A stretch of DNA of 64,000 nucleotides from Cenococcum geophilum (Eukaryota), in NCBI GenBank assembly GCA_050273025.1, contig CP158635.1, positions 17,484,001-17,548,000 on the forward strand, in the 5' to 3' direction. Below, piece by piece: positions 26,090-52,652 of the stretch. The notes under the pieces are model-generated. The model had not been told where the DNA came from. It searched no databases and saw only the letters and a list, made by a program, of their open reading frames with translations. Each line of letters starts with the position of its first letter. The stretch's first letter is position 1. A program made the position numbers and the translations under genes.

Positions 26090-26348
26090 AGGTAAATAGT
26101 AATTAACTAGGCAAACAAATTCTTTCCTTAAGTACTCTTTAAGGTATTATCGTATTATAAGTAGCTCTTTTTGTAATATACTATATAACAGGCTAAACTT
26201 TAGTGTTATACTAGGTTTAAGTTCTATCTTAAAATTATACTCGTCTTAATATAGGGGTAGTTAGTTTATAAATCGTTTCTTAAATATATTAAATAAATTA
26301 TAATATTTTTAGGTATAAGAGGTCGGGGGTTAATATATTACTTTAGTT
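26090..26348 (-). mobile_element. Gypsy X, distal fragment (pol just upstream of RT; truncated)
   Basis: Minus strand de-RIPs to ..YHDLFDVFEK..DQLPPHR.EYDFKIELEPG..PKFGPLYSMS.EEL....YL.E.L.K.F.RP. It is contiguous with 40848+ once LINE B is removed. Confidence 0.75.
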
Positions 26349-29300: not shown

Positions 29301-29588
29301 TTAAAATTTGGTGTATATGGTTTTAAATCTAATAGTCCTGTGCCGTATATTTAGTATAGCTCTACTACCTAGCAAATAGGGACATTTCGCGATAGTAATT
29401 ATAGCTATTATGCAATTGTTAAGAACGTCTATAACGTTATTCTTTAATACTATAGTATTGTTTTAGGTCTAATTTAACCTATATACGTCTTTAATTTAAC
29501 GTCTTAATTACCTTCCCCCGGCCGCGTAGTTAGTTTTTATAAGGAAGTAATAGTTAAATAACTTATACGCGTATTTCCTTCCTTTTAA

Positions 29589-30752
29589 ATAGCGCTATTG
29601 TAACGGAGTTATATCGGCAAGGTTGCGGCTATTTACCAGAAGGGTATTAGACGGTAAAGTATAAGGACACCTTTACTTATTAAGCTGCTCCTTTTCCTTA
29701 ACACCTTACTTTCCTATTATTAACCTTCGTCTAATTTTAGACGTATCTTTAATATATTATTAAGATTTTCTTCTTTTTTATTATTAATTTAATATACCTC
29801 TTTATTTTCCTACTAACTACTCTTCTAAGTAAATTCTATAGCGTATCCTAGCCCTACCTTTATATATAAAACCCTAACCCCCGCTAACCCATAACTAGTG
29901 CTAGTCCTACCTAAATAATTTTGCCTGTACGTCTTTAAAAGACTAGAAATCTAATAATAGGATTCTGGAGGCTTATAATAAGACGCACTATATTAGATCT
30001 AATACCTTTAGTCCTTATAATTAATGCATGCGTATTAAGAGCAGCAGTTACATTAAGGTAAGTTTTTCTATCCTTAATAGATTTCCATTGCTAACTTTAA
30101 GCTTTAATAGCCTAGGCCTAAGTGGCAACGTTCCTTTAATATCCTTAACTACTATATCACCCGGGCTCTCTCTCATTCTAGCGCAAATACTAAACAACTT
30201 GGCCAAATTTAAGACTATGCTATAGCTATCTACACTACCTATAATTCCTAGCAAGCTAGCTAGTAACGCCTAATATAAGAGTAAGGTTAGTATACTAAGG
30301 ATAGGGTGCGTAATAGGGGTAATAAGAAGAAGGTCGCTGTCTACTATAGAAAGGAGTTCGCGTATACGCGTTAAGTTTTAAAAGAGTATAATATAATGCG
30401 GTATTAGGTAGGTTACCCTTTAGGTACCTAGCGGATAGGTAACTAATAATTGCCGTAGTAAGGTCTCGGTAGTTCTAGATTATGCCAGCTAGCTAACATC
30501 TCTATTTATTCTAGGCTTAAGCGTATCTTTATTAACTATAAGCTTACGCCACAAGAGCTTCGTTAGTATTGGTTTGGACCTAATATTAGTGTTAAGCGTT
30601 TAAAAGTCTCTACTCTAGCTACACCTTATTATCCTGCCCCTATTTTTATACCTACTCGTACGCCTATTAAGGCATCTAGATCCTATTCTTATTAGCTATT
30701 ACTTAGTAGCTTAATAGACACTAATCCTACTCCTAATAATAATAAGGCGTAG
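29589..30752 (+). pseudogene. Antisense, spliced Zn2Cys6-like gene carried by Gypsy W (~346 aa before RIP)
   Basis: Exons 29589-29828, 29899-30057, 30111-30752 (240/159/642 nt, all phase 0). Introns GTAAAT..GCTAAC..TAG and GTAAGT..GCTAAC..TAG; TATAAG ~50 nt upstream. Exon 2 reads C*SYLNNFACTSLKD*KSNNRILEAYNKTHYIRSNTFSPYN*CMRIKSSSYIK. Reverting only RIP-type changes gives CQSC-x27-C-x8-CDQC-x7-C-IE. Confidence 0.7.
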
Positions 30753-31384
30753 TGGCTTTTTAGATTAGGCATTTATGGTTTAGACTTTTAGGATTCGTTC
30801 TTGTATATAGTAGCAATTAAGGACCTTAATTAAGTGCTCAGGAAGGCCTTATAAGGCTTTTAGAAAGGGCTTAAAAGCCCTAAGAACAATGTTCCTGGTA
30901 TAAATTAATAAATGGGAATATAATTCTAGTAAAATGCCCTATTAACTCTATGCTATATATATGGAAAGGCTAAAAACCTATCCTGCCTTAGGCCGTAGCC
31001 CTATCCCTATGGTTTCCGGAGCCTATCCGTTCTATATCCAATTTAACCTATTTACTCTTTTCGCGAGCTTTCTTCCTAGGTCGCGATAACACCGTAGTAT
31101 TAGAGCACTTTCTACGACTTGTAGATTGTGGACCTTAGTCCCAATATTCTTTTAAAATATCTTCGCAATAATTAAGGTAATCCTCTGGTTCCTATATAGA
31201 GTCCTTAGCGGGCTAGCCTAGCTATTTAACTTTAAATTAAAGCTTGTTCTTAACAGACTTATAGCATAGTATAGCTTTAACCTTATACCGCTCGCCCACC
31301 ACCTTAGGATGTTTAATTAGGCCTAGATAAAAGTTCTTTTCTAATAGTAGTCTATGCCATAGCTCTAGTAGGTTTATGTAAAAC

Positions 31385-34300
31385 ACTAAATATATATAGG
31401 CTATAGATGGGGGTAGCTGGAGACAATAGGCTAGCTTACTAATTTATTCCTTAACTTAAAAGGGACCTAGGTATCTTATATTGAGCTTCTTTAATAGTTA
31501 ACGGGTCTTAATATTTGTTAAATATAATAGAACCTTATCGCCTACTCCGAAATACTTATCCTAGTACTTACGGTTATACTAAAGTCTCTACTGCACTTAA
31601 GCATCTTATAGGCTCTACTTCGCATGCTTCTATTACTCCTCCTATTCCTAGAGGTATCCTTATACTCTCTAGTGGATATCCTTAGACTTCCTAGTAGGAT
31701 CCTATAACTAATTATACGGCCTTAACTAGTGATTGTTAGGTATACCATTAAACCTAAATAGTCGAACGCTATAGGCAATCTGGATTAGTGCATACTTATA
31801 CAATATATATTGCTTTAAATTATAAGCGTACTCCGCGTACGGAAGTAGCTCGCACTAGTTATCTTACTAGTAGTTCAAATATATCCATAGGTAAGACTCC
31901 AGTTCCTAGTTCTAGCGTTCCGTTTACCCATCCATCTATAGGTAAAAAGCCGTACTATACTAGTGGTCTATCTTTAAATAGAAGTATAGGTCTAACCAGT
32001 ATTAGCTTATAAAGACGCTGCCCCTATTAGTAATAATAGAGTGTAGCTAATCTACTTTAAGAAAGCATTTCTCCTTAATTAGGTTAGCGAGCTTTTATAT
32101 ATTAATCGTCTTATTAACAGGAAGGTATTAGATATACTTTAAAAACCTATTAATAAGTACGAGGACCGAATCGTATGTTTATCCTTAGCTATCTTTAAAT
32201 AGCGGGAGATCCGTAATAAAGTCTATAGCATAATATTACTATGGCTTACTAGCGGGGGAAACTAATTTAAGTAGACCCCATAGCTTATACCTGCGGATCT
32301 TATATACTTAACACTTCTTATAATAGCTAATATACTCCTTTGCTTCCTAATTAAGCCTTAGCTAATAGTATTTACGCTAAAGTAATTCCACTGTCTTTGC
32401 TTAACTATAGTGGCCGCCCAGAGGATCATTGTAATTCTTTATAAGAATCTTCTATCGTAGATTTACTTCTTATAGCACCCAAACCTTACTACCTCTACGT
32501 AGTAGGCCCATCGGGTCTAGTTCCCAATAGTGGCGCCTAGCAGCTTCCTTTCCGTCACGTTTCCGGTCTACTTCCGTATTAAGGTTAGTATAGGAAGCGT
32601 CCCTCTATTACACCTTATAAATGAGATCCGTTAACCTTTCGGATAGTTCCCGGGTAAAAGCTATTTCGTCCTATACTACTCTAAGTATAAGACTAGATAG
32701 TACCATAGATCTTACAACTCTTTAATGCGTATATATTAGGAAGGCCGCTATAAGGTTAAAGTCCTTTAGTTATTATAGGGCTCCGAGTTCCAATTACTCT
32801 ATAGCTTCACTATTTGTTTAAGGGAATAGCTTAGTAATTAGAGATAGTATATTACTAGGTTCCGAGAATATATCGGGGATATTCTATCTAGGTATATTTG
32901 GACCCTTATTGGCAATAGACTGGGTACTAGCTAAAACGTTAGTAGAAACCAATAGGGCTTATACCGCCTAAGACTTAGTGCATAGAGCTATAGGTACTTA
33001 AGCATCCTATACCCGGAGCTTATTCTGCAATATAGGGAGTAAGATATCTATTATCTGTTTTCCTTCTCCCGTTTTAAAGCCTTTGGCATAGTCTAGCCGT
33101 CGTAACGGTCCATTAGCAGGGTTATTTTCCCCTAGCTTATATTTAATCTTAAAATTAAATTGCGTAAGCTCTTCTACCTATCTAGCTTATTAAGGTATAA
33201 GCTCCTTTATAGTTATAAAGTAGCGTAGATTATAGTAATCTAAGAGTACACAAGTAGTATAGCTCGCGTGCTTAAGGTAGTATCGCCACTATTTAAAGCA
33301 GTCGACTATAGCCAGTAGTTCCTTATCATGGGTATAATACCTAACTTTAGGTCCCTAGAATTTTCTGCTATAAAATACTACTAGTCTTTAATAGAGTTAG
33401 GTAGCATCCGGATACCTATTAGGTTGCAGCAGGATACCAATAAGGGCAAAGTTTGATACATTAGTAATTATCATTAATAGCTAATCTAGGTTAAAATGCC
33501 GTAGTAATAAAGCTTCTATAAACTTCGCGCGAAGTTCCCAAAAGGCCTCCTAAACCTTTCTGGGCTATAACTATGGCTTATACTATTTGGTTAGTCCCTT
33601 CTTAGTTTTCTTCCTTACCGCCTTTAAGCTTTTTGCTCCTTAGGTTGGGTTTTAGGAAGCTTCTATAATATAGTTAAATAGGTATTGGGCAACGTCTAAG
33701 TAGTTATAGATAAAGCGCCTGTAGAAATTGGCAAAGCCTAGGAACACTTAAACATCCCAATAGCTCTCTAGCTCTGGCCACTCCTAGATTATCTACACCC
33801 GTACTAGGTCTATAACTATATCTATAGACGTTATAATATAACCTAGGAACTCGACCTGCTTAGTATTAAAGATATACTTTAACGCCTTAGCGTAGAGGCC
33901 CTAATTATCCAAACGTTCCAGCACTTCGCGGATATATTACTCGTATTAATCCTTATCTTCTAAGTAGATTAAGATATTATCTAAATAAACAACATATATA
34001 CGGTCGACTAGTCCCCCTAAGGCTCTGTAAATATACAATTAGAATATCGCAGGCGTATTAGCTAGCCTAAAAGGCATTACCAGATACTTAAAGTGGCCAT
34101 ATTAGGTCTTAAAAGCGGTCTTCCACTTATCCCCTTCTTTAATATAGAGCCTATAATAGGCGTCTTATAGATCTAGCTTCGTGAAGATCTTTGCCCTAAA
34201 TAGTTGATTTAGCATTTTACTAACCAGTAGTAGTAGGTAACGGTTCTTAATTATAATCTTATTAAGACTGTAATAGTCTATATATAGCCTTATAATTCTA

Positions 34301-37105
34301 TCTAGTTTTAGGATAAAGAGGATCAGTATGCCTAACGGCGACTTACTGGGCCGGATTTATCCCTTTTCCAGTAAGCTATTAAGGTACTCCTATAGGATCT
34401 TAAGCTCTTTACGCAAGAGGTTATAAATAGAAAGATTTGGCGGTTACTTACCTTCTTCTAAATTAATTGCATAGTCATACTCCGAGTTCTATAGTAGGAC
34501 TTTAGCTCTCCTACCTAAAAATACCCTTAGTAAGTCCCTTAGGCCTATTAGAATATTTAACAAATTAGGGTCGCGTTTATCCTTTATATTATTGTCAAGT
34601 AGGTTCCGGAGCTCCCTTAAAATACTTACAGGCAGCGTTGTGCGCTATAGTGGTTGCTTATATATAGTTGCCACTATACATTAAACCGTTTTATGCGGTA
34701 GCCAGTAAAGGGTAGGGAACTCCTTAACGCAGCGTTTAAGGTGCCATAGCATACTCTCCGCATATTACTTAAGCTAGAGTAACCTATAGCGGTTAAAGTA
34801 TCTCATAAGATCCTTAAGATCGCCGCCTCCCTACAATGTCTCTATAACCTATCCAGTAGTTCCCTATAAGGTCTCTATTATAGAGGGGTTATTACCTATA
34901 CTAGGCTCTATACCTATCTTGCTATTAAATAGGGGTTAGATTTAATACTCCTTTAGGTATAGAGCGTATACTATTTCGCCTAGGGCTATATTCTCTAGGA
35001 TGTCCTTTAGGCTTATTAGTAATATACGCCCTTCTAAATCTTTATTATTCCACTATTTAAAGGCTCCAGTCTTAAAGCGTATCTTAGGATCTGCTTCTAT
35101 AAGCTAAGGGTATCTAAAGATAAGGTTATAACCTACAAAATCAGCCGCCTAAAAGGGTTGCGGGCCGACTACCTTAGTATAGTTATATATATCGGCCACT
35201 AACACTATAAGCTTATAGGCACTGTGTAGCTTAATCCAATACTTATCCAGGAAGCCTATAATAGGTTTCCGCCACCTTTATAATGGGATAAGTTTATGCT
35301 CTTTTACTAAATTATATCGTATAAGATTAATTTCGGCGCCGCTATTATATAGTGCTTAGAACTATCGTACCTCACCTATAGGGAGTATTATTTCTAGCTT
35401 AACAGCAATACGGAGAGTCTCTCCTTTTATATCTTGCCCTAGTTGCAGCTAGGAGAGGTCTATAACTAGGGCTTTTCTTTTTTTAGATTGTTAGTGCAGT
35501 TATCGCCCTACTTATTTTTCCAATAGGATCTACCTCTAGAGTTTTCTCTTAACTTCTTAAAGTGTTCCCGTAAAGGTACTAGATAGGTATTAGATTAACC
35601 CCAAGAGTCTTTCCCATTATTTAAGGTTCCTAACTTTAACCCTTCTGAAGTTCTCTTTAAGAACGGCTTCTTTAAAGGTTAGGTCTACCCTATATTACTA
35701 CTAGAGTGCCTACGCTTCTAGTAACCCCCTAGCTTCCTACCGGAAGAGGTCTAGTTCCTTACCGCATCCTTAGCGTTTAGAACCGCTCGTTTAAAATCCA
35801 TATATACGGTAATTCGCGGTAGGGCTCCTACGCGCTTTATTTTATCACAAATTACTAGCTTAATTCTAGCCTAGATAAATCCAATCTTCTCCTTCTCGCG
35901 GACGCTGCCGTCCTTATTTTTAAAGGGCTTTAGATCCATCTATTAAGCATAAGTTTCCATAAAGTTTATAAACTGGCAGAAGTCTTAACGGTCTAGCTAC
36001 GTACTATTCCAGAATTATTCTATATTGTTATATTATATAATATACGGATCTTAGGTCTAACCCTTTAGGAAGGTCTATAGCTATAGCCATATTATAATTT
36101 ACTCTTTACTAAATTAATTAAGCGCGATCTAGTTTAGCAATCGGTCTTTAATCTTGCTAATAATCTAGCGTATACGCTCTTTAGTATTATCTTATATTAT
36201 TAGCATCTTAAAGAAGTTGTCTACCTCACGAACCCAATTATCCAGCTATTAGGCGTTAGGTTTATAACAAAGTTCTAAACTACTAAAGGCCTTAGCCAGT
36301 CAGTCTATGTCCTTTTTCTATTTATTGCGTAGGTGCCTCTCTAAGTCTTCCACACCTCCTTAGGTAGGTACTAGGTAGCCCTTAAAAAGCCTTTAGCCTT
36401 AACTAGGTTATAAAAGAATTTATCTAGCTTAGATTAAACCCTACCAGATCTAGATTTGCCCTTAAAGGGTTCTAATATATTTATTAGTGGCTTCCTCCCG
36501 TATGGCTTCTAAGAGCCTTATAACAGCTTCCTAATATCCGTCTTAAAGGAGATTGGTATAGGGCTCTTAACCTTCCAAACTTAGGCCTAGGGAAGCTCCT
36601 GCTATAGAGGTAGTATTAGCACTAGTAGCTAGTGCGGGTTTCCTAATAAGCCTTAGGTCTTAAGTTAGTGTTTAGGTTTAGTTTCCTAAAGGGGTAAGCC
36701 CGCTTAGCTCGTAAGCAGTCTATATACTACTACTATGCCAATTATAGGCTAGTGGTCTTCCAAGAGGGTTCCGGTTAGGTCCCTAGTCGGACGCGTTAAT
36801 ATATTCCTCTGGTATTTCTAGCTTAAGGGAAGATCTTAAGGTCGCCTCTAGCGCTTAATCTTCTAATTGGCCTAGGTGGGACTAAAGGGGTTCCGGTTGC
36901 TTTCCGGCAGCATTATAACCGTTATAAAGGGTGTCTGCGTTTTCCTTAGCAGTAACTATAGGTGTGTAAGAGTCTTCAAGCTCCTAGAGCATCTGGGTAT
37001 TAGGGCTCGTTCGGCCGTCTTACCTAGAGGGTTATATTATCGCAATCTCTCGCTATTAGAGGGACCTTCCTGCCTTTACGCGACGGCTTTCCATAAGGTA
37101 TCCAT
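31385..37105 (-). pseudogene. gag-pol of Gypsy W (gag, protease, RT, RNase H, integrase); 3' end approximate
   Basis: ATG at 37105. RT relics KWKTAFKT*YGHFKYLVMPF (~34070-34130) and VYLDNI (~33975-33990); RNase H YYTHDKELLAIV (~33305-33340); integrase IAMDFITDLP-like (~32205-32235). Confidence 0.9.
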
Positions 37106-40100
37106 GGAGCTTCCATTTAGGTTATCGCGAGATTTTAAGGGAGGATAGTGGTTATAAATAAAAGATATAAATAAACAATCTGGTTCTTAAAGCTAACTAC
37201 CCTTCCAAAAAGAGTAGAAAGGATTTAAATATAAGAGGATCTTGTAGATAGGGGGCTATAAGGACACGATTGTGGAACAGGATAGATTAGTAAGAGAGAC
37301 GAATCCTTAAGGAGGTAAGGCCTCTGGGATTGTGGAGACTATATACTACGGGCACGTACCTCTAGTACGTAATCGGCGACCATCCAAGGGGCGTCCGGGG
37401 GTTGTCCTAAGGGCAACCTAAGGTGTCTGCAATAATATCCCTTACACCTAGGGTTAAAGGGGTTCTATAAATAGAGAACATTATATTAGTAATAAGCTTA
37501 CTAAAAACTAAAGGTATAGAGTCTATCTTACTAGGAGATATAAACCTCCACTACCCGCGGTAGGGGGGTATTTATATTACTGCTAATTAATAGGTAGAGT
37601 GCCTACTAAAAGCTATAAACACCTAGGGCCTTAAGTTAGCCACCCCCCTAGGAGCAACTATATGGTAATAAGGAACCTCTAAAAGTATAATTAACCTTAT
37701 ATTTATAGACGAAGGCCTATATTAAAGACTTAAAAGGTATAACCCCCAAAAAAATAGGCACTTGCCTTAGACTATATCCCTATCCAAATATAGCTAGATT
37801 TAGATATTAAGGCGTAACTAAGTAGCAAAAGATATATAATAAGGAAGCTTAAGATAAATAGTTTTCTTAATATAGTTAAATAACAACTCTAAAACCTAGA
37901 AGAAATCCACCTAATTCCAAACAAGCGAGGCTTATTAGCTACCCCTAAGGAAATTAACTAAAGACTAAAAAGGATCTAGGTAGTAATTAAAAATAGGCTA
38001 AAAGAGTACTGCCTAGTCTTAAAACCGGGCCCCTACACGCGATATATATGGTCCGCATAATACGCGGTTCTTATTACTAGCTAATAATAAGCAAGAAGGA
38101 AATATATAAGTAGCTATAACTTTAAAGATAAGAGATAATATAAAGACATAAGAAACCAGTTAAAGAATACCCTAAAGAAAGAAGTAAGGAATAACTAGAG
38201 ACGGTTTATAAATAAGTACACTTTTAACCCGAGCCTTCCCTATAATAAGGGCCTTTGGGTTATAGCAAAATAGGTAAAGAAAAAGGTAGAGCGTTTAGTA
38301 AAAGACCTATACTTACTACCCCTATAAAGAGTAGGGGAATTATAGGCTACTAATAATAATAATAAGAAGGTAAAGATCCTTATAAAAAGGTTCTTTTTTT
38401 AACTGGCTTTAGTAGACCTTAGTAATATTACGGGTAAAACACTAGTAACTTGCCTAAGAGTTAACAGCGATATAATAACAGAGGAAATAGCCAGAACTAT
38501 TAGCCGCCTTTTAAATAATATAGTATTAGGACCAGATAGGATTCTAAATAAGGCCTTAAAAACCTATAGACTACTTATAGCACCTTAGCTTATAGATATA
38601 GCCAGGGTATACTTTACCGTAGGCTACTACCTACGACTTAGAAGATCTATAACGACGGTTATTCTATAGAAAGAAGGTAAAGTAGATTACTTAATTCTAG
38701 GAAGCTACCGCCCTATTGCCTTAAAAAACACCCTTAGTAAGATCTTAGAAAAGGTAATAGCGGACCATATAGTAGATATGGCTAAGAAATATAATTTACT
38801 ACTATAAAGCTAAATAGGGGCAAGAAAGAACCGCTTAATACTATTAGTACTTACGCTACTTATTGCTACTATTAAATACGCATGGGCGATGCGAAGGGAC
38901 TTTATAGTATTAATACTTAGCCTAGATATTAGCGGCGCCTATAATAATATACCCCATAAGCGTCTCCTATATATCCTTAAGGTAAAAGGCTTCCTAGAAT
39001 AGATTATATAATTTGTTTAAGGGTTTATAGGTTAGAAAGAAATATTACTAGTCTTTAGCGGATACTAGAGCCCCCCTATTATAGTTATAATAGGAATACT
39101 ATAAGGATTACCCCTCTCGCCTATACTCTTCCTTTTCTTTATAAGCAACCTACTTAACTTCTTTAAGAAAGGGGCGACCTAGGGGATAGGCTTTATTAAT
39201 AATATAAACCTAATTATATACGGGCTAATAGCTATAGAGAATTGTAGAACACTAGAGAAAGCTTATAATACCTATATAGAATAGGCAAGACGATATAAAG
39301 TCCAATTCTTATTAGAGAAATACTAGCTAATCCACTTTATAAGAAAACGTAACTAATCTGTAGATCTTTAGCATATAATTTATATCTAAGGCTTTAGGGG
39401 TTAACTAGTTTAGGGCTTAAGGGTATTAGGAGTATAGGTAGATAGTAAGCTCTAGTAAAGCGTATATGCGGCGTAAGCGGCCTATAAGGGCTAAGTATAG
39501 TATATCGTATTATCCAGGATTATTAATTCTATATAGGGTCTATACTTTTAGAGGTTACGCCTACTATATATAGTAGTTGTCCGGCCAACCATAACGTATA
39601 GGTCCAGTATTTAGGCCATTAGAGAATCTAAGAAAGGCCCCCCTAAATCGCTCCTTAAACCACTCTAAAAGGTCTAGATAGCTTGCCTTTAGAGTATAAT
39701 AGGCGGATATAAGCGAACGGCTACAGTACTGCTTAAAAAGGAAGCTAATATTCCCCCCCTATAACTATATATTAAAGCCGCTGTAATATAAAGGGCGTAA
39801 AATAAACGCAACTTTAATGTTATAAAGTATATTAAGATACGCCTAAATATACTATAGAGGGACCCTAGGGCGCCCTATAGGAGAATAAACTAACAACCCT
39901 AAAGTAGGGAAGATATATTAGAGAAACAGGTAAAAAAAAGTAGAAGAAGAATAGTGCTGCTTTAGGGCCTAGACCTATATAGAGGAAGAAGGGAAACGTA
40001 TAAGAGGCCAGTAAAGATAATAGTAAGAGAGAAAAAGAAGCTAAAATAGAGCATAAAAGAACGCTAGGAAACTATTTACTATAATATAATACTGGCTAGA

Positions 40101-40847
40101 CTAATGCTAAAGAGGTATATAGGAGTTAAAGGTATAGAGGCTAACTAAGGTAAGAGAAACCTAAGCCGTAGTATAGTTAACGTTATAGGGGGTAAACACT
40201 CTAGAGCTCTAAGAAGGCCTAATAAAGGCAAAAAAATATAATAGTAATACTCTTAAGAATAGGAATAATAGGACTAAAAGATTGGCTCTACTAGGTGGGT
40301 GTCCTAGTAGGTAGCCTAAGATGTAAATATAGCTAGCTAAGATAAACACTAAAATACGTAATACTGTTATACCCCTTACGCACCAACTAAGAAGTAATAC
40401 TCTTAGTAGCTAGCATAGAGAACTATAATATACTACTCTTAATATAAAAAGGCCTTAAGGCGGTTACCTAGTGGCTTATTAGCTAAAATATACTAAACCA
40501 GTTCTGGGTTATAAAGGAAATAGTAATAAAGGGCAAGGGAGGCGAGCAATAAGCGCCCCTTAATGACTCTATAGTAGTAAAGTAAAGTTTATAATACTAG
40601 CGCGTCCGTAGGCTTATTACGGCAGTAGTGGTTCCTAAAAAGGTTAAAAAGTAAGGTAGTAGAGCACTATAGGTAACTTGTAGGCGCCTTGTAGGCGAGT
40701 CCCTAAAGGTAGGGAGATAGATTACGGGTTTTTCTTAAATAGAGTTTTCTCCCTATATGTATATAAGGAGTAGCCCGCGTAGGCCCAATAGGGATCCGAA
40801 TTAGACGTTAAGTAATAAATAATATATATATATATATTACTTTAGTT

Positions 40848-42991
40848 CTAACGCCTTCTTAATATCTTTTAGTATTATAGTAAAGATCTTATAGTTTTAT
40901 TTTCTTGCTAATAAATAAAAGGGTATAGCTTATATTATATAAATTTTAAGGGGTTTTAATATATTATCTTCGCATTCTTTACTATAATTAGTAGTTATAA
41001 CTTTATTATATTAGTTTAAGGTTTATAGTAAGGGCAATTTATATTATATTAAATTTAAATAGTTGTGTGTATATTTATAGGGTAAGTGGTATTTTAAGTA
41101 ATAATTTCGGCAGTAGGTTATACGGAATTTTAATATTTCTTTAGCCTAGCTAATTAAAGAGTTATATTATTTTAGCTATCTATATCTAAGTATTACCTTA
41201 TAATACTTTAAGGGTATTATAAATAGGGAAATATATTTAAGGTATTTGCTTATTTATATCTTTATAAAAGCGTAGTATGTTAATTTACTGTATATTAAAG
41301 GCTTACCATTAAAGCCTTATAGGCCTTAGGGCTTATTAAGTTTCTTTAAATTTAAGCTTTAAGTTTTCGCATAGTTTATATTAATAAAGCCTATACTAGT
41401 AGCTCCACTATCTATAAGAATTTATACTTCCTTTTATTTTTTAAGTGTTTAAATTTTGCTAATTATATTAAGGGAGTTGTATTATATATTAGTATTAAAA
41501 AAGCCTAGATACTTATACTCTTCCATTTCTTATCCTAAGGCGTAACTTAGCCTTAGGATAATTTATTTTCTAAGCTAACTAAAGACGAGATACTTTATAG
41601 TAACCGAGTATAATTTAAGAATTAGAAGGAACTACGGCGGACCTTTTTAAAAGGGTAAGTTTAATAATTCCTTTAAATATATCCCTTTTTACCGCATCTA
41701 AAGCATTCTCCATTTATAGCTTAAGTTCTTTATTTATTAGTTCCTAAGGGTATATAGAATTAGGTGGTATTAAGGTCTATAGGGTTATATATAGGGCTCT
41801 TAGGTCTTAGAAACAGATCGCGCTTTAGGGTATATACTAGTTTTATAAAGTTTTAAATATAAGATATAGTTAGCTTTAGAAAACGAGTCTATTTATTATA
41901 TTAAAGGTTCTTATTAATTCGTTAATATATTATAGCAAATTTGGGTAAGTCCTTTAGCAGTTCTCTACCTACTAACTATACTCTAATTTTATTTAAAATA
42001 GCTTAACAGAGAGCAGTAACTCTAGCGGCTTTATTCTAATCTAGTTTACTAATAAGGCCTAAAAATTCTAAAAAGAAGCTGGTAAAGTCTCGGTTCTATT
42101 ATTATAGGGTTTTAAGTTTAGTAATAGCTATATATTTACAGCTAGTATTATTATATATTTATTTTAATAGAGAGATAAAGATTTTAAAATTAACGAAGGT
42201 GCTATTATAAAAGAATAGGTCTATAGTTTATATAGCGTCTTTACTTAAATAAGACATTCTATAGCTAATCTTACTAGCTTTAGTAGAGTATTAGTTATAA
42301 ATTATTAAAAGTTTAAGACGGAGCTTAGTTATAAAGGGATATAGGTTATTTTTATTTTTATTAAATATTAGAAGGTTAGGGAGTTTTTTAGATTTTATAG
42401 TAGGTATTAGGTTTATTATAGGTACGGGTTAAGCTACTATTATTAGTTTAAGGTTTATATTTAACAGGTTAGGTTTATATATAGTTATTTTAATTTCGTT
42501 TATAGGTATTACTATTAGGGTCTTTAATATAAGTGCTTTAAGGTTACGAAGCTCTTTATAGATTACTCCCATTAATTACTAGTACTAAGCTTTTAATATC
42601 ACTTGCTATTAGGCTAAAGCATCTATAAAAGACTATTGCATTATAGTTAACGCAAGGGGTTTAAGTTCGTTTGCTATTTTAATAGTAGTTATTTTAACGT
42701 AACGTAATATAAGGGCGTAAAGAGACTTTAGGGAAGATTTAAAGAAATAATATAAATTTTATCTAAATCTAAGGGTATATAGCTCTTACTAAGAACAAGA
42801 TATTATATAAAAAGGAGAAAGGAATAACAAGAGAGTTATATATTAAATAGTTAGGGGTCTTAGTAGTTAATATATACGCACATATATACGCGGTCTTTAA
42901 CTAACTTTAGTAGAATTTAATTAATCTAGTAGAACTTAGTAGAATTTAGTTAAAGCGTTAGAATTTATCTATTAAGTACTTTACTAAGACA
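40848..42991 (-). mobile_element. Gypsy X, proximal part: 5' LTR (42787-42991), gag and protease region; very heavily RIPed
   Basis: LTR with TG..(C/T)A termini on the minus strand, followed by a self-priming-type site. Gag-like relics (LPN...FN.NKNN.YPF.TKLRLKL, ~42315-42385). Continues across the LINE B TSD into 26348-26090. Confidence 0.72.
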
Positions 42992-43022
42992 TTCCCACTA
43001 TAACTAGGCTAATCCCGTTACA

Positions 43023-43141
43023 TCTTTTAAGTTATAGGTAATAGCCTATAGTAAAGTATACTCTAGCTATATCTATAAGCTAAAATACTATAAGTAGTCT
43101 ATAGGTCTTTAAGGCCTTATTTAAAATCCTATCTAGTCCTA
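43023..43141 (-). mobile_element. Tad1-like LINE copy D fragment, left part (target of Gypsy Y)
   Basis: Reverse complement of the ORF2 segment seen at ~38525-38648. Joins 61171+ across TSD TCCTA. Confidence 0.82.
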
Positions 43142-46100
43142 TATTATAGAACCCCACTATAAGGGCCTCTATAGGAGAGCCCCGTGCTCTCGCGTATACC
43201 TCGCGTATAGCTTATATCAGCTACGCGTAGGTATATCACCTCCTTACGCCCTCGACCCTTACGATCGATCGCGCAACGTCTTATAGACTCCTCGAATATA
43301 TACGCTCTATAGCCACTGCCCACATTCCATAACATTACGTTGCGCCTTTTTACTACTAACGCTTAGCCTATAACTAATTCTACATCTCTATAATACTATA
43401 GGCGCTGCTAAAAGCAGCGTATTTATAAATTACCTTACTTTATACTTCTAAGGAACCTATAATAGTAAGATAATATTCCTTACTAGTAATATACTTATAT
43501 ATTATACTTATAAAAGGAGCTCTTACTATACCCGGCCTAAAAAGACTAAAACCAACTAAAAAAAACCCTAAAAAATACCTAGAGAATCCCCCTAAGATAT
43601 ATATATCGCAGGGGAGGCACACGTTAACTAATGGTGGCTCGCACTTATATGTAACCGCCAGATCCACGCCTAACAACGGCCCTCTATAATAAAGATGGGC
43701 GAATACCACACTATAAAGCGGAAATACCTCTATTAAGAAGGCATCTAATAAAATATAAAGCCTATTAGACGCGTCTAGTATCCAGAATTATAGGGGAGTA
43801 ACTATTAGCTATAACGAACTAATATAGCTAGTAGAATAGCTCCGCCAGTCTAGTAAACCTTAGGCGCCCCTTTAGTAAACCCTTAATTAAATCCTCTAAC
43901 GGCTAAGCAAAATTAAAAATAAATAATAACCCCCTTTACCGGCGAACCGCACCTAGGCCGCTATAGCCGCGCTTCTATAGTATAGGAAACCTACCCCCCT
44001 TAAGATAATAACTGGGTATATAATTATAATATAACCAAATATAGAAAAAGTAGAGGGGCTTAGGGGATAATTAGAAATAGAAGTCCTTATAAAGATTTAT
44101 AAAGAGGTTTATGACGTAGTTATAGTCTAACACCTTAAAAGTAGAGACATTAGAATTACCCTAAAGGACTAATAAGTAAAGAAATAAGCTATAAGGGTAG
44201 GGGATAGGCTAGGAGAACGTATTAGCATAAAAGTGCTCCGTAAAGACTACCTAGTTAAAGTCCTAGCAGTTTCTATAAGCTTTAGGGTAGAAAAGGGACG
44301 CTAGGCGGATAATATAGTAACTATATAGGAGATAGTAAAACATACAGAACGCCTTATACTAGGCCTTAAGATTACCCAAATCTAATAGCTTTAATAGGAA
44401 AATGTAAACTAAGCAAATAATAAGAATAATAAAAGGATATAAGGGTCGCTAGAGACTTATTAGGGAGACGCTAGTTAAACGCATAGCTCCCTTATTGTTA
44501 GTATATATATACTAGGAATGCAAAAACTCCTTATTTAAAAAGAAATAATTATAAATGGCCTTATATACAACGCAAGGCTCTATAACTACAGACTACGCCT
44601 AGAATAATGCTACCGCTATATATAATGGGGACATACCTAATCCATATATATAGTATAGGTGTGCTACGGCCACTATATAGGCCCCTATAATATAAAACAC
44701 TGCTTAAATTAAGATTAAATAAAATGCGTAAACTGCCACCAAAGCATATATAAGGCGTAGGAGAGAGAAGACTGCATTAAATATAGGAGGCGGAAGGTAA
44801 GGGCTTAATAGCTATGGGAATAACTATACGCTAGGTTATATAAATGGAAACAATAAGTAATAAGCTAGGGGGATATAGGTGCCTTCCTAGCGTTTCCTAC
44901 CTTTAGTACTAGGGGGCTAGGCTAGCTATTCTAAGCCTTAACGGGCCAGAAGTGGCGCCGCGTAATATTACTAAACCGTATAGGGATATAAGGGTTATAG
45001 GGGATATAAGGGAGAGGACGCCTAGTAGGAAGACCCCTATAGACAGCTATAGTAAGCTTAAGACCAGGATAATTAAGAATTAGATTTAACGCGGCAAATA
45101 TAATATTTACAGCCGACCTATAAAGGGCGTATAGCTAGCTAGTAAGAATAGGGGAGAAACTAGAGATAATAACAGATTTAGATATAAAAGTGCTAGTAGG
45201 AATATAAAATATAGGAATAGAAAGCTCTATATAAAATAAGTAGTAACTAGGGTATAAATATAAGAGATAAAAGTTCTAAATATCCTAGAGAAAGTAAAAA
45301 TAGAAGAAGTAAGAAATAAAGGAGAGGCAAAGGACCCTTGCCGGGGGTCCGCCACCTATTCATTATATAGTATAACTGCGGCAATATAAACCACCGTCTT
45401 ATAAGGCCTTTATTAGACAGTCTAGACCTAAAGAAATACTATATCCTTGCTATATAAGAGCCGTACTATAATACCTATATATAATTAATATACTGCCCCT
45501 AAGGATTCTAGCTCCTATATAAACCAAAAGTAGCTATACGCGTATGCTTTATAATTAGTAAGGCTATTAGCCTATCCTTATAGTTATAGCAGGCAGTTAA
45601 CCTAGATATTATAGTTATAATAATCTAGATATATAGGGGACCGGTATAAATTATTAATATATATAACCCTAGGGTTAAAGGGGTCCTATAAATAGAGAAT
45701 ATTATATTAGTAATAAGCTTGCTAAAAACCAAAGGTATAGAGTCTATCCTATTAGGAGATATAAACCTCCACCACCCGTGGTAGAAGGGTATCTATATTA
45801 CTGCTAATTAATAGGTAAAGTGCCTACTAAGAGCTATAGACACCTAGGGCCTTAAGTTAGCTACCCCCCTAGGAGCAACTATATAGTAATAAGGAACCTC
45901 TAAAAGTATAATTAACCTTATATTTATAGACAAAGGCCTATATTAGAGACTTAAAAAGTATAACCCTAAAGAAGAATAGGCACTCGCCTTAGACTATATC
46001 CCTATCTAGATATAGCTAGATTTGGATATTAAGGCGTAACTAAGTAGTAAAAGATATGTAATAAGGAAGCTTAAGACAAACAGTTTCCTTAATATAGTTA

Positions 46101-47371
46101 AATAATAACTTTAAGACCTAGAAGAAATCCACCCAATTCTAAATAAGTAAGGCTTATTAGCTACCCCTAAGGAAATTAACTAAAGACTAGAAAGAATCTA
46201 GGCAGCGATTAAAAATAGGTTAGAAAAGCACTACCTAGTCTTAAAACCGGGCCCCTATATATAATATATATAGTCCACATAATACACAGTTCTTATTACT
46301 AGCTAATAATAAGTAAGAAGGAAATATATAAGTAGCTATAACCCTAAAAACAAGAGATGATATAAAGACACGAGAAACTAGTTAAAGAATACCCTAAAGA
46401 AAGAAGTAAGGAATAACTAGAGACGGTTTATAAATAAGCACACTTTTAACCTAAGCCTCCCCTATAATAAGGGCCTTTAGGCTATAGTAAAATAGATAAT
46501 AAAAAAGATAGGGCGCCTAGTAAAAGACTTATACCTATTACCCCTATAAAGAGTAGGGGAATTATAGACTACTAATAATAATAATAAAAAGGCAAAGATC
46601 CTTATAAAGAGGTTCTTCCCCTAACCGGCTCTAGTAGACCTTAGTAATATTATAGGTAAAACACTAGTAACTTACCTAAGGGTTGACAGCGATATAATAA
46701 TAGAGGAAATGGCTAGAACTATTAGCCGCCTTTTAAATAATATAGTACTAGGACTAGATAGGATTCTAAATAAGGCCTTAAAAACCTATAGACCATTTAT
46801 AGCACCCTAGCTTATAGATATAGCTAGGGTATACTTTACTATAGGCTACTACCCACAACTTAGAAGATCTATAACAACGGTTATTCTATAGAAAGAAAGT
46901 AAAGCAGATTACTTAATCTTAGGAAGCTACTACCCTATTACCTTAGAAAATACCCTTAGTAAAATCTTAGAAAAGGTAATAGCGGACTATATAGCAGATA
47001 TAGCTAAGAAATATAACCTACTACTATAAAGCTGTTAGGCCATAGAGACGCACTAGCCGTAACCGGCTTAGCGCAGGCGAGGCGCAGGCGAGGCGCCTAC
47101 AAAACGTAGTCGCCCCGCATCAGAGAATAGCAGAATTCAGTTCTACAGTTCTACTTCATTAAGAACCAGATACTCTTCGCATCCCGTTACTATTATCACG
47201 TTACTACATACCCTAAGGACCTTAGCGTCCTAACAGTACTAAATTCTCATCCCTTTTTAGGGGTAGTGGCCTAACAACATAGCGGTCTACTAAGGCCACA
47301 ACTACGTAGCAGCAACCCTCTGTCGAGAAGACGACCTATATTTATTAACTATATCGCAGCCTATTGACCTA

Positions 47372-50300
47372 ATGGCGAGACGCGGGCGTACTAGCATAGT
47401 GCGTACTACTAAGACTAGGGATCGGCCCCAGAATAATATAGGCGAACCTATATCGTCCTAGATAGAACTGGAAGCTATAGGCAAAGGGGATATATAGGAA
47501 GAAATACAACGGCTAGAGAACAAGAAGCTACAACTCCTAGAGTAAAGAAAACTACACTTGCTTAAAGAAGAGGTAGAAGTGCTAAGACGGCGTTAACGCG
47601 GCAAGGTGACGTCAACTCCTGTTCCTAACCCAGATCTACAACCTTAAACTATCCCATTAGAGTACTTAGATGGTAGCTAAATACGTCCAAACCTTAAGCG
47701 AAAGGCTACTGATATAATAGGCGCTCCGTTAAAACGGGCCGTTAAAATAGAAAAGATTGCTCTATATTATAGTAAGACCATATAAGAGCACCAAGACTTC
47801 CGCGATAGCTTAAAGCTGGCGTTCCGCCTAGAGTATAACGGCTTTGCGGATAAGGATACTAAAGTTGCGTTTACTATGTAATATATAAAGGGGACCAACT
47901 AAACCCTTTGGCTGCAGTATGAAGATAACTACCTAGACACGTAGTTTACCTAGGAGGAGCTTATGGAATTCCTACTTAACTAGATCAAAAGTCCTATTAA
48001 TTAAGAACTCTATATAGCCCTAACCTATTTAAGGGCAATACAGCGAACCGATTAACTAGTAAACAAATTTACTGCTTACTTAACCTCTTTAGAAGCGCAA
48101 ATAAACCCTCCTTATAATATAAAGTATTTAATAATATATCTATTCGCGAAGCTGCGGCCAGAGCTACGGGTTGCTATTACCAACTATTAAGAATTCCCTT
48201 AAACTTAAGACCAGCTAGTTTCCCTAGCTGCCCTATTAGAGGAAAACTAGAAGAGCGCAAGCGCCCTATAGGGTAGAAGCAATAGGCGCGCCGTAAACTC
48301 GAATATAAAGACCACCTAGTTAGGTAACTTAGAGAGAATAGACTCCAAAACCACTACTGGCGACTTGATAGTGGGGTAAAGTAATACCGCCGGGGGTTCG
48401 ACTTAGCCTAAAGGAAACTATAAAAATTATAGTAAGCCAGGATATTGGTGGCGAAAATGCCTGGAGTAGTAACAGTAATAGCAGCCGCCACCAAGCACCG
48501 TAAACACCATCTCTATGCTAGGAAAAGGCAGGCGCCCTTGGAGCCCCTCACACCTATAGGGCGTAAGCTACCACTAGATTGTAAGGAAGCTATTACTGTC
48601 TTAGGAGAAGTCCTATCCCAGTAGACTTAGAAAGAGACCTTAGTAATGCTTAATCTCGGCGCCGAAGTAAATGTAATTAATTAGTGATTTGCAATGGAGT
48701 GTAACTTTAAGACACTAGACGTAGAATTACCTACCTACTCCTAGTTAAATAAAACTTAGGCATATTGCTATAAAGCCTATAAGGTACTATTACAAATAAA
48801 GGATAGCTAGGGCAGGATTAGGGAAGTAACCCTTATCTGCTATAGAATGGCTAACGTATCCCCTACTATTACCCTAGGTATACCGGGGTTAAAGAAGGCC
48901 TAACTTCTTATTAACTGCGAGGCGAAGGCGTGGCGATAGAAGCTAGACGGCTTGTCCCTGTTGCTATAAACCCCTAAGGGTTTCGCGGAGTCTTTCTAGA
49001 GGGAATCTAGGGTCTTCGCCCTAGTAATTGCTAGATTAATGCCTAGTAAATAAGACAACGGCAGCTTACCGGTCCTTCCCTTATAGTTAAAAGAAGCTAG
49101 CGATATCTTCTTATATAAGAAAGTAGGAAAGCTACCCTAACACCACTAGGGCGACTATACTATTAACCTAGAAGAGGGACAGGAGGTCCTATATAGACCG
49201 CTCTATAACCTCTTAGTTAAGGAGCTAAAGGTACTAAGGGAGTACTTAAATAACGCCTTAGCTAAAGGTTAAATTTAACCAAGTACTAGTCCCGTAGGGG
49301 CACCTGTCCTATTTATACCTAAAAAAGATAGGAAGCTATAGCTCTATATAGACTATAGAGGCCTTAATAAGGTGACAATTAAGAATTATCTTGCACTACT
49401 ATTAGTTAGTAAGACCTTGGACTACTTAGTAGGTTTTAAGATCTTTACTAAGTTAGACCTAATAAATACGTATTACCGCCTTCGTATCCATTGGGGCGAT
49501 AAGTAGAAAACAGCGTTCCGTACGCGTTACGGCCACTTTAAGTATTTGGTTTTGCCTTTTAGGCTAACTAATAGACTAGTGACCTTTTAGGGCTATATTA
49601 ATCGGGCCTTATTAGGACTAGTAGACGTCTTCTATATAGTCTACCTTAATAATATTCTAATTTTCTCTAAAAATCCAGAGGAATACTGGCGCCACGTACT
49701 AGAAGTGCTATATAGGTTGCGGCAATATTAACTATATACAAACCTTAAGAAGTGCAGGTTTAGTATATAAGAGGTTAAGTTTCTAGGATATATTATTAGT
49801 CCTAAAGGCGTAGCAATAGATCCTAGCTGGGTAGAAGCTATTACTAAGTAGGAGAGCCCTTAATCCTATAGGGATGTCTAGGTCTTTTAAGGTTTTGCTA
49901 ACTTCTATCGCCAGTTTATCTATAAGTACTCTACTATTACGAAGCCTATTACTAATCTCCTTAAGGGAGCAAAGAACGGCCGTAAAGCTAGGCCTTTTAG
50001 TTAGCCAAAAGAGGTAGAGTAGGCAATACGCCAGCTCTATAACGCCTTTACAACGGCGCCGCTCCTATAACACTATACGCCAGGCTTACTAACCTAGTTA
50101 GAGACTAATGCCTCTATATAAGGCCTAGCAGTAATTATATTATAGCTGTTTAAAGATAGCCTTTAGTATCTAATAGCCTTCTAGTTTAGGAAGCTTTCGC
50201 TAGTAGAGCGCAATTATAAGACTTATAATTAGGAGCTACTAGCTATTATAGAGGCTTTTAAGTATTGGAGACACTATATTAAGGGGCTATTAAGCCGCCT

Positions 50301-52125
50301 AGAAGTACTCACAGATTATAATAATCTAAAGGGTTTTATGAAAGTAAAAGCCCTTAATGGACGGCAGGCCAGATAGGCTATAGTATTAGCTATCTATAAC
50401 TTTGTAATTAAGTATAGGGCGGGAAAAACAAACCCCGCAGACGTGCCGTTAAGGTAACCCCTAGGCGCAGGGGGTCCGCTAGAAGAAGACACTATGCTAC
50501 TATTACTCTAAAGGACTTTGGGAATATAGGGCCACTAACCTAAGGTAAAAGTCCTATTAGGTGTACAAGAAAACGAGCCTTCTATAGAGGTGTCGTTTTT
50601 ACGGCTATAAGCCAGCGACCCGACGGCGGTACGCTTAGGCTATATAGCATTACGGTTCGACTGGGCAACCTATACGTATGCCGTTAAGCAGCGTATAATA
50701 AGGACCCAAGTTAGAGAAGCTAGTACTTAAGAGAGTGCTTACAAGTCCAGTACGGAAACAGTCGTCGAGCTTATTAAAGGACTTTAGACTAAAGATGACT
50801 TTATACTACAAAAGCGCAGCGACAGCGTAGATACTACGAGATGCCGTCAACGCGCCTGCTTAAAGCTAGTGTAGCAGTTTAATTCCGCTAGACTACTTTA
50901 TCACCGCGGGAGGCTATATATGCCCCTAGACCTAGCGGTTTATATAGAACCCCTATAGATCTACTACGATAATACCCTAGCTGGGCACTTTAGTAAGAAA
51001 AAGACTCTAGATTTACTCTCGCGTAAGTACTACTGGCTTAGTATAACTGCGGACGTTATAAACTATATCTCTACCTATAATCTATACTAGCGTATACGTA
51101 CGCCTTAATATCGCCCTTATAGCGAGCTCTAAGCGCTGCCTTGCCCAGATTAGCTGTGGCAGAAGATTATAATGGACTTTATTATAGGCCTACCGCCTAG
51201 CAAATAAGGCGAGAAGGTGTATAATACAATATATATAATAGTCAACCGCTATACTAAGATGGCCTTATATCTACCTATAGTAAAAACTATTACTATAACC
51301 AAACTTGCGGATCTCTTCCTTAACGAAGTAGTACGCCGTTTTAGAGCCCCTAGGGGGATTATATCTAATTAAGGCAGTATCTTTACTAGTAAGTTCTGGT
51401 TGGAGCTATGCTTTACTACAAAGATTAAACGTAGGCTAAGTATGGCCTTTTACCCGTAAATAGACGGGTAAATAGAACGCCAGAACCAAACCTTAGAGTA
51501 TTACCTCCGTGTATTCTATAATAAAAAGCAAAGCAACTAGGCAGGCCTTTTATTGCTAGCCGAATTCGCCTATAATAATGCTAAATATAGCACGACGGGT
51601 ATAAGCCCGTTCTATACCTACTATAGGTTTCACCCCCATCTAGAATACAAGGTCTAGGCGGACAATAGTAGCTCTATTCTAGCCGCCTCTGAGAGGATTA
51701 AAAGAATATCCCTTAAACGCGAGGCGCTAGCAAAACGCTAGGAACACGCTGCCAAGGCGTAGGCGAAATACTATAATCATTATCACTAACTATAGGCATA
51801 CAAAGTAGGGGATCTAGTCTTGCTATTAACTAAGAACCTTAAACTAAAAAGGCCAAGTAAAAAGCTTACAGCACGCTTTATTAGACCTTTTAGTATAGCT
51901 AAACCAGTCGGAAAGCAAGCATACCGGCTATATCTACCTACGTCTTACCGTATTCACCCAGTGTTCTATATTAGCTTGCTAGAGCTATACAAACAACGTA
52001 AGGGCACTACTAGAGACCCTCTACCAGGGCCTATTAAGCTAGACGATAAAGGGGACCAAGAGGACCGGTACGAGGTAGAAGAAATACGTGGAAGGAAGGG
52101 ACGCGACCAGACCCTGCAATTCCTG
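47372..52125 (+). pseudogene. gag-pol of Gypsy Z ending in a truncated chromodomain
   Basis: ATG at 47372. Gag knuckle ..KPGYWWRKC, protease MLNLGAEVN (LDSGA), RT VYLNNI (~49640), RNase H TNAS/NYKTYN*ELLAI, integrase, RPSKKLTARFIRPF (GPY/F), then RYEVEEIRGRKGRDQTLQFL, which breaks off. Confidence 0.92.
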
Positions 52126-52652
52126 CACTTAGAGCAAGGGAAAGTCTTCGCCCTTTGGGCGCTGGCGGAGACCGTGCTTGGCGCCGGTGCGCACTAAGGC
52201 CTCAACATCCTTCGTGAAGGACTTCTGGGCGGCAGCGACGCGAGCATCAAGGTCAGCCGTGTCCCCGCCAGCAACCCGCCGGCGCTCAGCCCTGTCAATG
52301 AGGGCGAGCAGCTCGTTTAGGCGGCCATGGAAGGCCTTAGGGACCTAGTCTATTAGCCATCAAAACCTAAACCAACGCACTTAGACGTACTAGTTGGCAT
52401 GACTTATTTAGTCATCGGCAGTACCCGCAATTGCGGTTAGCCTACTTACCGCAGGTAGCCCGCCTAGCAGTAGCTACATACTTGGCGTAACGGAGGCAGA
52501 TTAGTTCCAGCAAAGCTAGGGAAGCGGCTTACGAGCGGCGTGGGAGCTTCGACGGCGCCTAATAGGGTTAGTAACAGCTACAAGCTAGTATAAAAAATAC
52601 TTACGGAAGACTCGCAAGCAGGCAAACCAACGGCTTAGCGCTTGCGATTTAT
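52121..52652 (-). pseudogene. Antisense, spliced Zn2Cys6-like gene carried by Gypsy Z (3'-truncated)
   Basis: Exons 52652-52605, 52558-52391, 52344-~52121, all phase 0. Two 46-nt introns GTAAGT..TACTAAC..TAG and GTACGT..GCTAAT..TAG; TATAAA ~100 nt upstream. Exon 2 reads APSKLPRRS*AASLALLELICLRYAKYVATARRATCGK*ANRNCGYCR*LNKSCQL; five Cys are intact and the sixth is TAC, a G->A change from TGC. Confidence 0.8.

Follow-up and report, generated by a model that had tools for sequence, protein, structure and literature searches.

The DNA analysed here, referred to as the window, is a stretch of 64,000 nucleotides from Cenococcum geophilum (assembly GCA_050273025.1, contig CP158635.1, positions 17,484,001 to 17,548,000 of the forward strand); all positions given below count from its first letter. 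Self-comparison and Pfam scans of the translated frames, with stops read as X, revealed two complete Ty3/Gypsy retrotransposons in opposite orientation, named W (28527–37446, minus strand) and Z (47033–53134, plus strand). Both are altered by repeat-induced point mutation (RIP), and Z has lost about 480 bp through an internal deletion. On the strand opposite gag-pol, in the part of Z that separates pol from the 3' long terminal repeat (LTR), we found a three-exon gene that runs from position 52652 down to the deletion and is the main subject of this report. A candidate for an analogous gene lies in W at 29794–30752 on the plus strand, between the LTR, which ends at 28743, and the chromodomain at 31138, again opposite gag-pol.

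To follow the Z gene across copies, its exon 3 was used as a tblastn query in metagenome contigs of the Joint Genome Institute (JGI), which returned 25 loci. The window copy was aligned with 22 of these, leaving out a partial locus (L021), a more mutated copy (L024) and a chance 8-mer match (L025). The Z-family elements at the 22 loci are 83–90% identical to the window copy, and the antisense gene is present in 22/22 of these relatives, which belong to three subfamilies. Exon 1 (52605–52652, minus strand, 16 codons) measures 48 nt in 22/22 rows and starts with ATG in 5/22 and with ATA in 17/22 rows, ATA being the form in the window. Intron 1 (52559–52604, minus strand, GTAAGT...CTAAC...AG) is 46 nt long in 21 rows and 47 nt in one; its donor reads GTAAGT/GTAAGC or the RIP form ATAAGT/C in 21/22 rows and its acceptor CTAG or TTAG in 21/22. 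The six-cysteine cluster is located in exon 2 (52391–52558, minus strand, 56 codons), whose length of 168 nt is kept in 21/22 rows, the exception being one in-frame deletion of 9 nt; a further copy, L022, is cut by the end of its contig. Intron 2 (52345–52390, minus strand, GTACGT...CTAAT...AG) has lengths of 46, 47 or 51 nt, with the donor GTAAGT in 18/23 and GTACGT in 5/23 rows and the acceptor CTAG in 20/23. Both introns are in phase 0, and length changes of 1–5 nt are confined to them. Exon 3 (52116–52344, minus strand) is cut short in the window to 76 of 107 codons; in 22/22 relatives it measures 324 nt and closes with the stop TAA. A TATAAA box (52753–52758, minus strand) about 100 nt upstream of the antisense start is found in all 21 rows covering the site, including the least mutated copy.

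The initial annotation of this stretch, made from the letters of the window alone, had proposed a three-exon antisense gene with all introns in phase 0 and a TATA-like box of its own in both W and Z. For Z, its exon borders (52652–52605, 52558–52391 and 52344 onwards) were reproduced exactly and are conserved in the 22 related copies, and the sequence signal of the TATA-like box is conserved as well. The 3' end has to be revised. The stop at 52130–52128 is a RIP-made TAA, with CAA at this place in 6/23 rows, and the true last 31 codons are deleted. The deletion junction (52113–52118) shows the microhomology TGCAGG, and 450–501 nt are present at this point in 22/22 relatives. What the deletion took from the antisense gene is its final 31 codons with their stop; also lost are a GA-rich spacer and the terminal part of pol, with the C-terminus of the chromodomain. 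Full copies have about 270 nt between the antisense stop and that of pol. With RIP stops, a Cys2→Tyr change and the deletion of its 3' end, the window copy of Z is dead. The spacer itself is a stretch of variable length rich in GAGGAG/GATGAG between the two stops in L001–L023 (e.g. 10330–10480 of L003). At the other side of the gene, upstream of the TATAAA box (window 52770–52840, minus strand; alignment columns 255–330), an 8-nt unit similar to AATAGGAC is repeated in tandem; its copy number differs among the Z subfamilies, and two copies have about four extra units. A 215-nt part of exon 3 (52130–52345) forms a nearly unmutated GC-rich island (GC content 0.60, RIP index 1.24) in the otherwise RIP-mutated element. 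In most relatives this part is heavily mutated; the island adjoins the deletion junction.

The cysteines of exon 2 follow the pattern C-x2-C-x11-C-x7-C-x2-C-x6-C. Their codons are TGY (Y, pyrimidine) in 20, 5, 15, 13, 19 and 19 of the 23 rows, respectively, and every departure is a change from TGY to TAY, the direction of RIP. Exon 2 of the window contains three RIP stops and Tyr in place of Cys2; L001 shows no internal stop in any of the three exons. The reversions of Tyr to Cys and of stops to Gln or Arg on which the initial annotation relied are thus borne out for Z by less mutated copies. Its strings C-IE and C-QP, written directly before the second intron of W and Z, are absent from the literal window sequence and presuppose the reversal of RIP changes. 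In the least mutated Z copies Cys-Gln-Pro is indeed found, so that intron 2 sits two codons past the last cysteine, as had been stated; in W a donor signal is present at the corresponding place, but the last "cysteine" is Tyr in both available copies.

Transversion distances divide the Z copies into three subfamilies. For each of these a consensus coding sequence was derived after reversal of RIP changes (de-RIP), and the three were compared pairwise. The open reading frames (ORFs) of all three consensus sequences are open over 179 codons. The ratio of the proportions of non-synonymous and synonymous differences (pN/pS) amounts to 0.22–0.29, with a pS of 0.11–0.12, close to the divergence of 0.12–0.13 in flanking non-coding sequence and introns. 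Differences between the subfamilies fall on the third codon position in 17/31, 17/26 and 18/30 cases. Non-synonymous changes are fewer than in random placements of the same substitutions (P=0.011, 0.0014 and 0.015; the pairs are not independent). Judged by these substitution patterns, the Z gene evolved under purifying selection as a protein. Since it occurs in all 22 copies and in three subfamilies and shows purifying selection, a one-off capture does not account for it. The view of the initial annotation that this is a selected accessory gene and no chance capture therefore holds for Z: frame and cysteines are restored by de-RIP, splice sites are kept across copies and dN/dS lies well below 1.

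The predicted Z protein of 179 residues consists of a basic, Pro-rich head, the six-cysteine cluster, a short linker and a helical tail. For the tail, encoded by exon 3, AlphaFold predicts three helices with low-to-moderate confidence (predicted local distance difference test score, pLDDT, 65.6). The initial annotation had assigned the cluster to the fungal Zn(II)2Cys6 type, whose canonical spacing is C-x2-C-x6-C-x5-12-C-x2-C-x6-8-C. Six cysteines are indeed found in the Z family, and in W a cysteine occurs in some copy at 3/6 positions. The gap between Cys2 and Cys3 is 11 in Z and 26 in W, compared to the canonical 6, and neither Z nor W matches the Zn_clus profile (PF00172). Antisense frames of the W and Z spacers likewise gave no match to Zn_clus or DUF3716 at E≤10. 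Because of the spacing of 11 against the rule of 6 the Z protein is not filed as Zn2Cys6, and by the available tests it stands outside the Gal4-type family. For the motif as it had been reconstructed, the x11 of Z is confirmed, but the corresponding distance in W is 26 and not 27. Zinc and nucleic-acid binding of the Z protein may be suspected from the cysteine pattern and the layout of the chain. A phmmer search with exon 3 among 1.84 billion representative proteins yielded no host gene; its matches were brief ORF pieces belonging to this element and repetitive chance matches. A search for longer protein homologues with exon 2 of the window returned none.

In W the pol-to-LTR spacer measures 2.4 kb and is far more mutated than the Z gene; the model of the initial annotation needs five Tyr→Cys reversions there. 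An independent, less mutated copy of W, P0014 (121 aa, 75% identical), has a frame that is open over 121 codons. Four stops of the window are Gln or Trp codons in this copy, and the first CxxC is restored as CWSC. The same copy shows that the TAG taken as the acceptor of intron 1 derives from a Trp codon by mutation and that the frame extends upstream to a Met equivalent to position 29794, so that exon 1 and intron 1 of the earlier W model are probably wrong. We propose a first coding exon of 88 codons (29794–30057, plus strand), which starts with ATA (ATG in P0014) and comprises a Pro-rich leader and a Cys/Tyr-rich stretch at 29899–30051. A candidate intron recognised by its sequence signal follows (30058–30110, plus strand, GTAAGT...CTAAC at 30091–30095...TAG); this signal begins two codons after the last Tyr/Cys of W. 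Within the acceptor of intron 2 (at 30101) in the earlier model, the A at 30100 is made by RIP (GGC, Gly, in P0014; AGC in the window) and the TAG at 30108–30110 is kept. The spacing can be written as C-x2-C-x26-(C)-x8-(C)-x2-C-x7-(C). The fifth cysteine of the window is Tyr in P0014, which indicates that such changes do occur at these positions. Frame, stop reversals and CWSC of the earlier proposal are borne out by P0014; at its third, fourth and sixth cysteines both copies have Tyr. The putative third exon of that proposal (30111–30752, plus strand) has an ambiguous stop profile: the full frame from 30102 is interrupted by 20 stops over 216 codons, of which two lie before 30111, and a search for protein homologues of 118–378 aa gave no relatives.

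The W family is present in very high copy number in DNA sequencing runs. Among the 40 of 220 variant places listed from the DNA reads, none falls at the Tyr codons 29990, 30017 and 30050. P0014 gave no Pfam match at E≤10 and no usable match in the ESM Atlas. Neither a purine/pyrimidine-degenerate DNA pattern for further W copies (0 matches) nor P0014 itself found a counterpart in viral contigs, and a match of P0014 in genome contigs (L026, 38%, bacterial contig) was discarded as spurious. A relaxed Cys/Tyr motif combined with an in-frame donor GT[AG][AC]GT within three codons was then searched in the window and the loci. Out of 166 motif matches the combination was found in 23 Z copies and at a single W site. 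As this site lies on the antisense strand of the pol-to-LTR spacer, chance is an unlikely source. An antisense, Cys-rich gene analogous to that of Z, with its start near 29794, is probable in W.

The initial annotation went further and regarded the two as one gene shared by both families. This homology is not supported, as all four comparisons remained within noise. Hidden Markov models (HMMs) of the three Z exons gave no match to W, even unfiltered at E≤100, and hhalign of P0014 with the profile of Z exon 2 gave E=0.97. A RIP-aware Smith-Waterman alignment, in which W codons were free to revert C/T and G/A, placed all six frames within the shuffled null (best scores 41–53 compared to 41±6, maximum 57). 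An eyeballed likeness of the residues after the W intron to the start of Z exon 3 was dropped in the fixed-position test, since 40–59% of random positions score equally. An alignment of the W spacer with the Z gene in purine/pyrimidine space scored 108 against a null of 92±6 (maximum 108 in 60 shuffles); this scoring is too permissive and the result was not used.

That W and Z are two distinct Gypsy families with unrelated LTRs was confirmed: their LTRs do not align, the likeness of the elements in tblastn is confined to pol, and no frame of W matches Z in the stretch from pol to the 3' LTR. W, a chromovirus by its Pfam matches (RVT_1, RT_RNaseH, Integrase_H2C2, SH3_Tf2-1 and Chromo) and RIP-mutated by its indices, is bounded by direct repeats of 217 bp that are 94% identical, the 3' LTR at 28527–28743 and the 5' LTR at 37230–37446 (both minus strand). 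It has a target duplication of 5 bp (CCTAG), and its host sequence is the repeat 'A'. The W chromodomain (31138–31287, minus strand), at the end of pol, corresponds to residues 5–54 of the frame from 31299 and was matched by Pfam Chromo with E=0.0025, under the curated cut-off. Z is delimited by its ends, its Pfam matches and its relatives; its LTRs of 203 bp lie at 47033–47235 (5') and 52932–53134 (3', both plus strand) and its target duplication is AAAGC, likewise 5 bp. The two LTRs of each element are 93–94% identical. Both elements contain RVT_1, RNase H, integrase, integrase zinc-finger and SH3_Tf2-1 domains, with the SH3 domain of Z pol at 51808–51990. With LTRs, target duplication, polypurine tract, the order reverse transcriptase (RT), RNase H, integrase and a C-terminal chromodomain, both W and Z show the features of Ty3/Gypsy chromoviruses; the chromodomain of Z is present in full copies (intact in L003) and cut by the deletion in the window. 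The polypurine tracts, which adjoin the 3' LTRs of W (28744–28760, minus strand) and Z (52915–52931, plus strand), are nearly identical, AAGAAGGGGGGGG, despite the unrelated LTRs.

Further observations concern the surroundings. AT-rich sequence with the signature of RIP (TpA/ApT 1.3–2.8, (CpA+TpG)/(ApC+GpT) mostly 0.3–0.7) makes up the right two thirds of the window. W and Z are each inserted in one copy of a long repeat (26335–40841 and 43473–55175) whose copies are 85–90% identical; a 1.3-kb part of it recurs at 23373–24714, about 3 kb upstream. Short direct and tandem repeats with units of 129–252 nt occupy 19728–22370, at the border of the gene-rich left and the repeat-rich right part. A small RT fragment is located at 24695–24952 (minus strand). 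A third Gypsy-type pol with RT and integrase at 57540–59993 (plus strand) is 30–39% identical to the pol of the Z family; within the window, no candidate with cysteine motif and donor was found antisense downstream of it. In the metagenome contig L017, a gag-RT fragment of the W family (1–2328, 86% identical to W) lies directly beside a Z-family element, suggesting that both families occur in the same or in a closely related fungus.

As the most plausible explanation, and on the whole a likely one, we consider that Z carries a real, selected antisense gene for a small six-cysteine factor, presumably acting in trans, and that W is probably analogous. The Z family consists of Ty3/Gypsy elements with a third gene, in antisense orientation, between the end of pol and the polypurine tract and 3' LTR. 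Introns on the antisense strand cannot be spliced from the sense genomic RNA and are thus copied faithfully in each round of retrotransposition. The Z protein would be a small nuclear, zinc-binding factor that binds nucleic acid or chromatin. By analogy to the regulatory roles proposed for other antisense ORFs, it may act in trans on the expression or the integration of its own element.

Several results weigh against this explanation. In Z subfamily 3, to which the window copy belongs, Cys2 is Tyr in 10/10 copies; this lineage thus spread with a damaged cluster, which makes the protein dispensable in cis. The three pairwise selection tests share data, and the subfamily consensus sequences may retain residual RIP changes, although such noise would push pN/pS up and not down. 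Structure and family searches gave little: the AlphaFold2 model of Z exon 2 is poor and consists of one long helix (pLDDT 62.4), the Z exons have no Pfam match at E≤10, including Zn_clus and DUF3716 (five natural exon-2 copies, one of them with all six cysteines), and the PDB sequence search returned none for exon 2 and noise at E>1 alone for exon 3. In the ESM Atlas the nearest clusters to exon 2 are unnamed ascomycete hypotheticals (≤0.88). On the side of W, Cys3, Cys4 and Cys6 are Tyr in the window and in P0014, and intron 1 as first drawn is contradicted by P0014. The ranges of the motif were set with W in view, so that the scan is partly circular, and about 0.4 chance hits of motif and donor are expected by estimate. 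On the minus strand of the W spacer, the frame 30269–30051 is stop-free over 73 codons. In one raw-read RNA run, 13 reads fell on 29500–30800 and none contained a splice joint, and presumed-RNA contigs gave five pieces; these results count neither way.

In a rival reading only the Z gene is real and the "gene" of W is a pattern read into a RIP-mutated spacer, with P0014 as a chance open frame supplied by a gene finder. We regard this as rather unlikely, yet it deserves to be taken seriously. Tyr codons (TAY) and strings similar to GTAAGT are common in the heavily mutated W spacer, and 33 matches to the relaxed motif fall in the window's mutated part; the estimate of about 0.4 chance hits refers to 142 background motifs. 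W and Z show no similarity in any test, both W copies have Tyr at three of the six "cysteine" positions, the first intron did not hold, and the third exon has 20 stops in 216 codons and no relatives. On the other hand, P0014 reverses four stops and restores CWSC over 121 open codons, which we estimate to be improbable by chance at about 7% stops per codon. Moreover, the sole hit of motif and donor outside Z in about 355 kb falls exactly antisense into the pol-to-LTR spacer. Alternatively, the 2.4-kb spacer of W could hold an ORF on the gag-pol strand (from about 30640 down to 30051), instead of or besides an antisense gene. This reading would draw on the stop-free run of 73 codons at 30269–30051, on the few stops in the same frame up to about 30400 and on a residue make-up that, in our reading, is more protein-like than that of the plus-strand read-through frame. 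However, coding frames often have an open frame on the opposite strand, and except for the chromodomain no Pfam match was found in the minus frames of W. We hold such a sense ORF to be very unlikely.

For Z, it appears improbable that the functional product is an antisense RNA that pairs with the genomic RNA and feeds or tunes silencing, with the ORF being secondary. Its transcript would be complementary to the 3' part of the genomic RNA, and a role of this kind is discussed for antisense ORFs in the accessible part of PMC7264820. Selection, however, is specific for the frame (excess of third-position changes, pN/pS 0.22–0.29), and exon lengths preserve the reading frame whereas those of introns vary, both of which indicate a translated protein; in addition, RNA and protein roles are not mutually exclusive. 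Least of all do we expect the Z ORF to stem from a host gene, part of which was captured by transduction on a single occasion and carried as a passenger without a role for the element, an account we consider extremely unlikely. It could appeal to the absence of a recognisable retroelement domain in the Z protein and to the spread of subfamily 3 with Cys2 changed to Tyr. It is opposed by the same place of the gene in all 22 copies and three subfamilies, by its own conserved TATAAA, start, introns and stop, by purifying selection during the diversification of the Z family and by the missing host gene among the 1.84 billion representatives searched with phmmer. A selected antisense gene in Z, with a probable analogue in W, thus remains our preferred explanation.

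The antisense gene brtn of Boty-like fungal Gypsy elements was reportedly published in 2011, in Virology 417:248. The Z protein has no named relative in the searches run. According to the part of PMC7264820 available to us, Boty of Botrytis cinerea and Sclerotinia sclerotiorum has an antisense ORF as well; antisense ORFs in the pol-to-LTR stretch, those of Boty included, are likewise described in PMC8365987, and brtn is cited or used in PMC8365987, PMC4227169 and PMC5987419 as far as the accessible sections of these articles go. For plant elements, namely Grande, RIRE2, Retand and PvRetro13, the available part of PMC7264820 calls additional antisense ORFs between pol and the 3' LTR relatively frequent. 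Maize Grande gene23, rice RIRE2, Silene Retand and Phaseolus PvRetro13 ORF2 share with Z the position, the orientation and the presence in most copies, as described in that portion (PMC7264820). From the same text, the plant ORFs have their own promoter, no clear database similarity, a proposed regulatory role and nuclear localisation (PMC7264820). In contrast to Z, the plant elements belong to non-chromovirus lineages and have larger ORFs, and the accessible part of PMC7264820 mentions no six-cysteine cluster. Beyond the plant ORFs, Z offers two spliceosomal introns and a measured pN/pS. Position and strand of such additional antisense ORFs are shared by the Z gene and the W candidate; for Z the gene was found in 22/22 relatives and for W the candidate frame in one further copy. 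Our literature search found no antisense gene of zinc-cluster or DUF3716 type in fungal retrotransposons beyond brtn, though more may exist on bioRxiv or in closed supplements. As a kind, such genes are not new, since antisense genes between pol and the 3' LTR had already been described; the initial annotation had left open whether this type was known.

Two further systems resemble Z in some respects. With the Gal4 type (PF00172) the Z protein shares the fungal origin and two halves that each contain a CxxC, the second half, C-x7-C-x2-C-x6-C, fitting the canonical spacing. Similar to the Gal4 module of cluster, linker and coiled coil, it has a basic N-terminal flank, a short linker and predicted helices. 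Unlike that type, it has a distance of 11 between Cys2 and Cys3, no match to PF00172 and 179 residues without the large regulatory middle-homology region. The antisense protein of human T-cell leukaemia virus (HTLV) is HBZ. By analogy, Z would resemble it in a spliced antisense transcript (predicted for Z) from the 3' part of a retroelement, a small nuclear regulator as product and a helical tail of the dimerisation type. HTLV, however, is a vertebrate retrovirus, its protein has a basic leucine zipper (bZIP) in place of a cysteine cluster and its promoter lies inside the LTR, so that the comparison is one of analogy only. The antisense promoter of HTLV in the 3' LTR is mentioned in the accessible part of PMC7264820.

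The Z gene is a solid, well-documented further example of a kind of antisense gene in print since 2011. Among the accessory genes of retrotransposons it ranks with the cleaner cases: recovered from wrecked copies, it has exact borders, a conserved promoter box, restored cysteines and purifying selection. As genes of this kind are already in print, the value of Z lies in adding a testable and well-documented example. That a gene is "shared between families" cannot be read from motif spacing alone. It is doubtful, though conceivable, that the antisense genes of Z, W and Boty (brtn) form one ancient family diverged past recognition, a standard third gene of fungal chromoviruses. Its product would be a DNA-binding dimer of zinc-cluster type, specific to the element, whose LTR it would recognise as a self-activator or anti-silencing factor. 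If this were true, the elements would be "complex retrotransposons", comparable to complex retroviruses. In fungi with active RIP, antisense genes of this type are missed by ORF-based transposon annotation. Should the Z protein bind the DNA of its own element, it would provide a handle on the control of expression or targeting of fungal chromoviruses.

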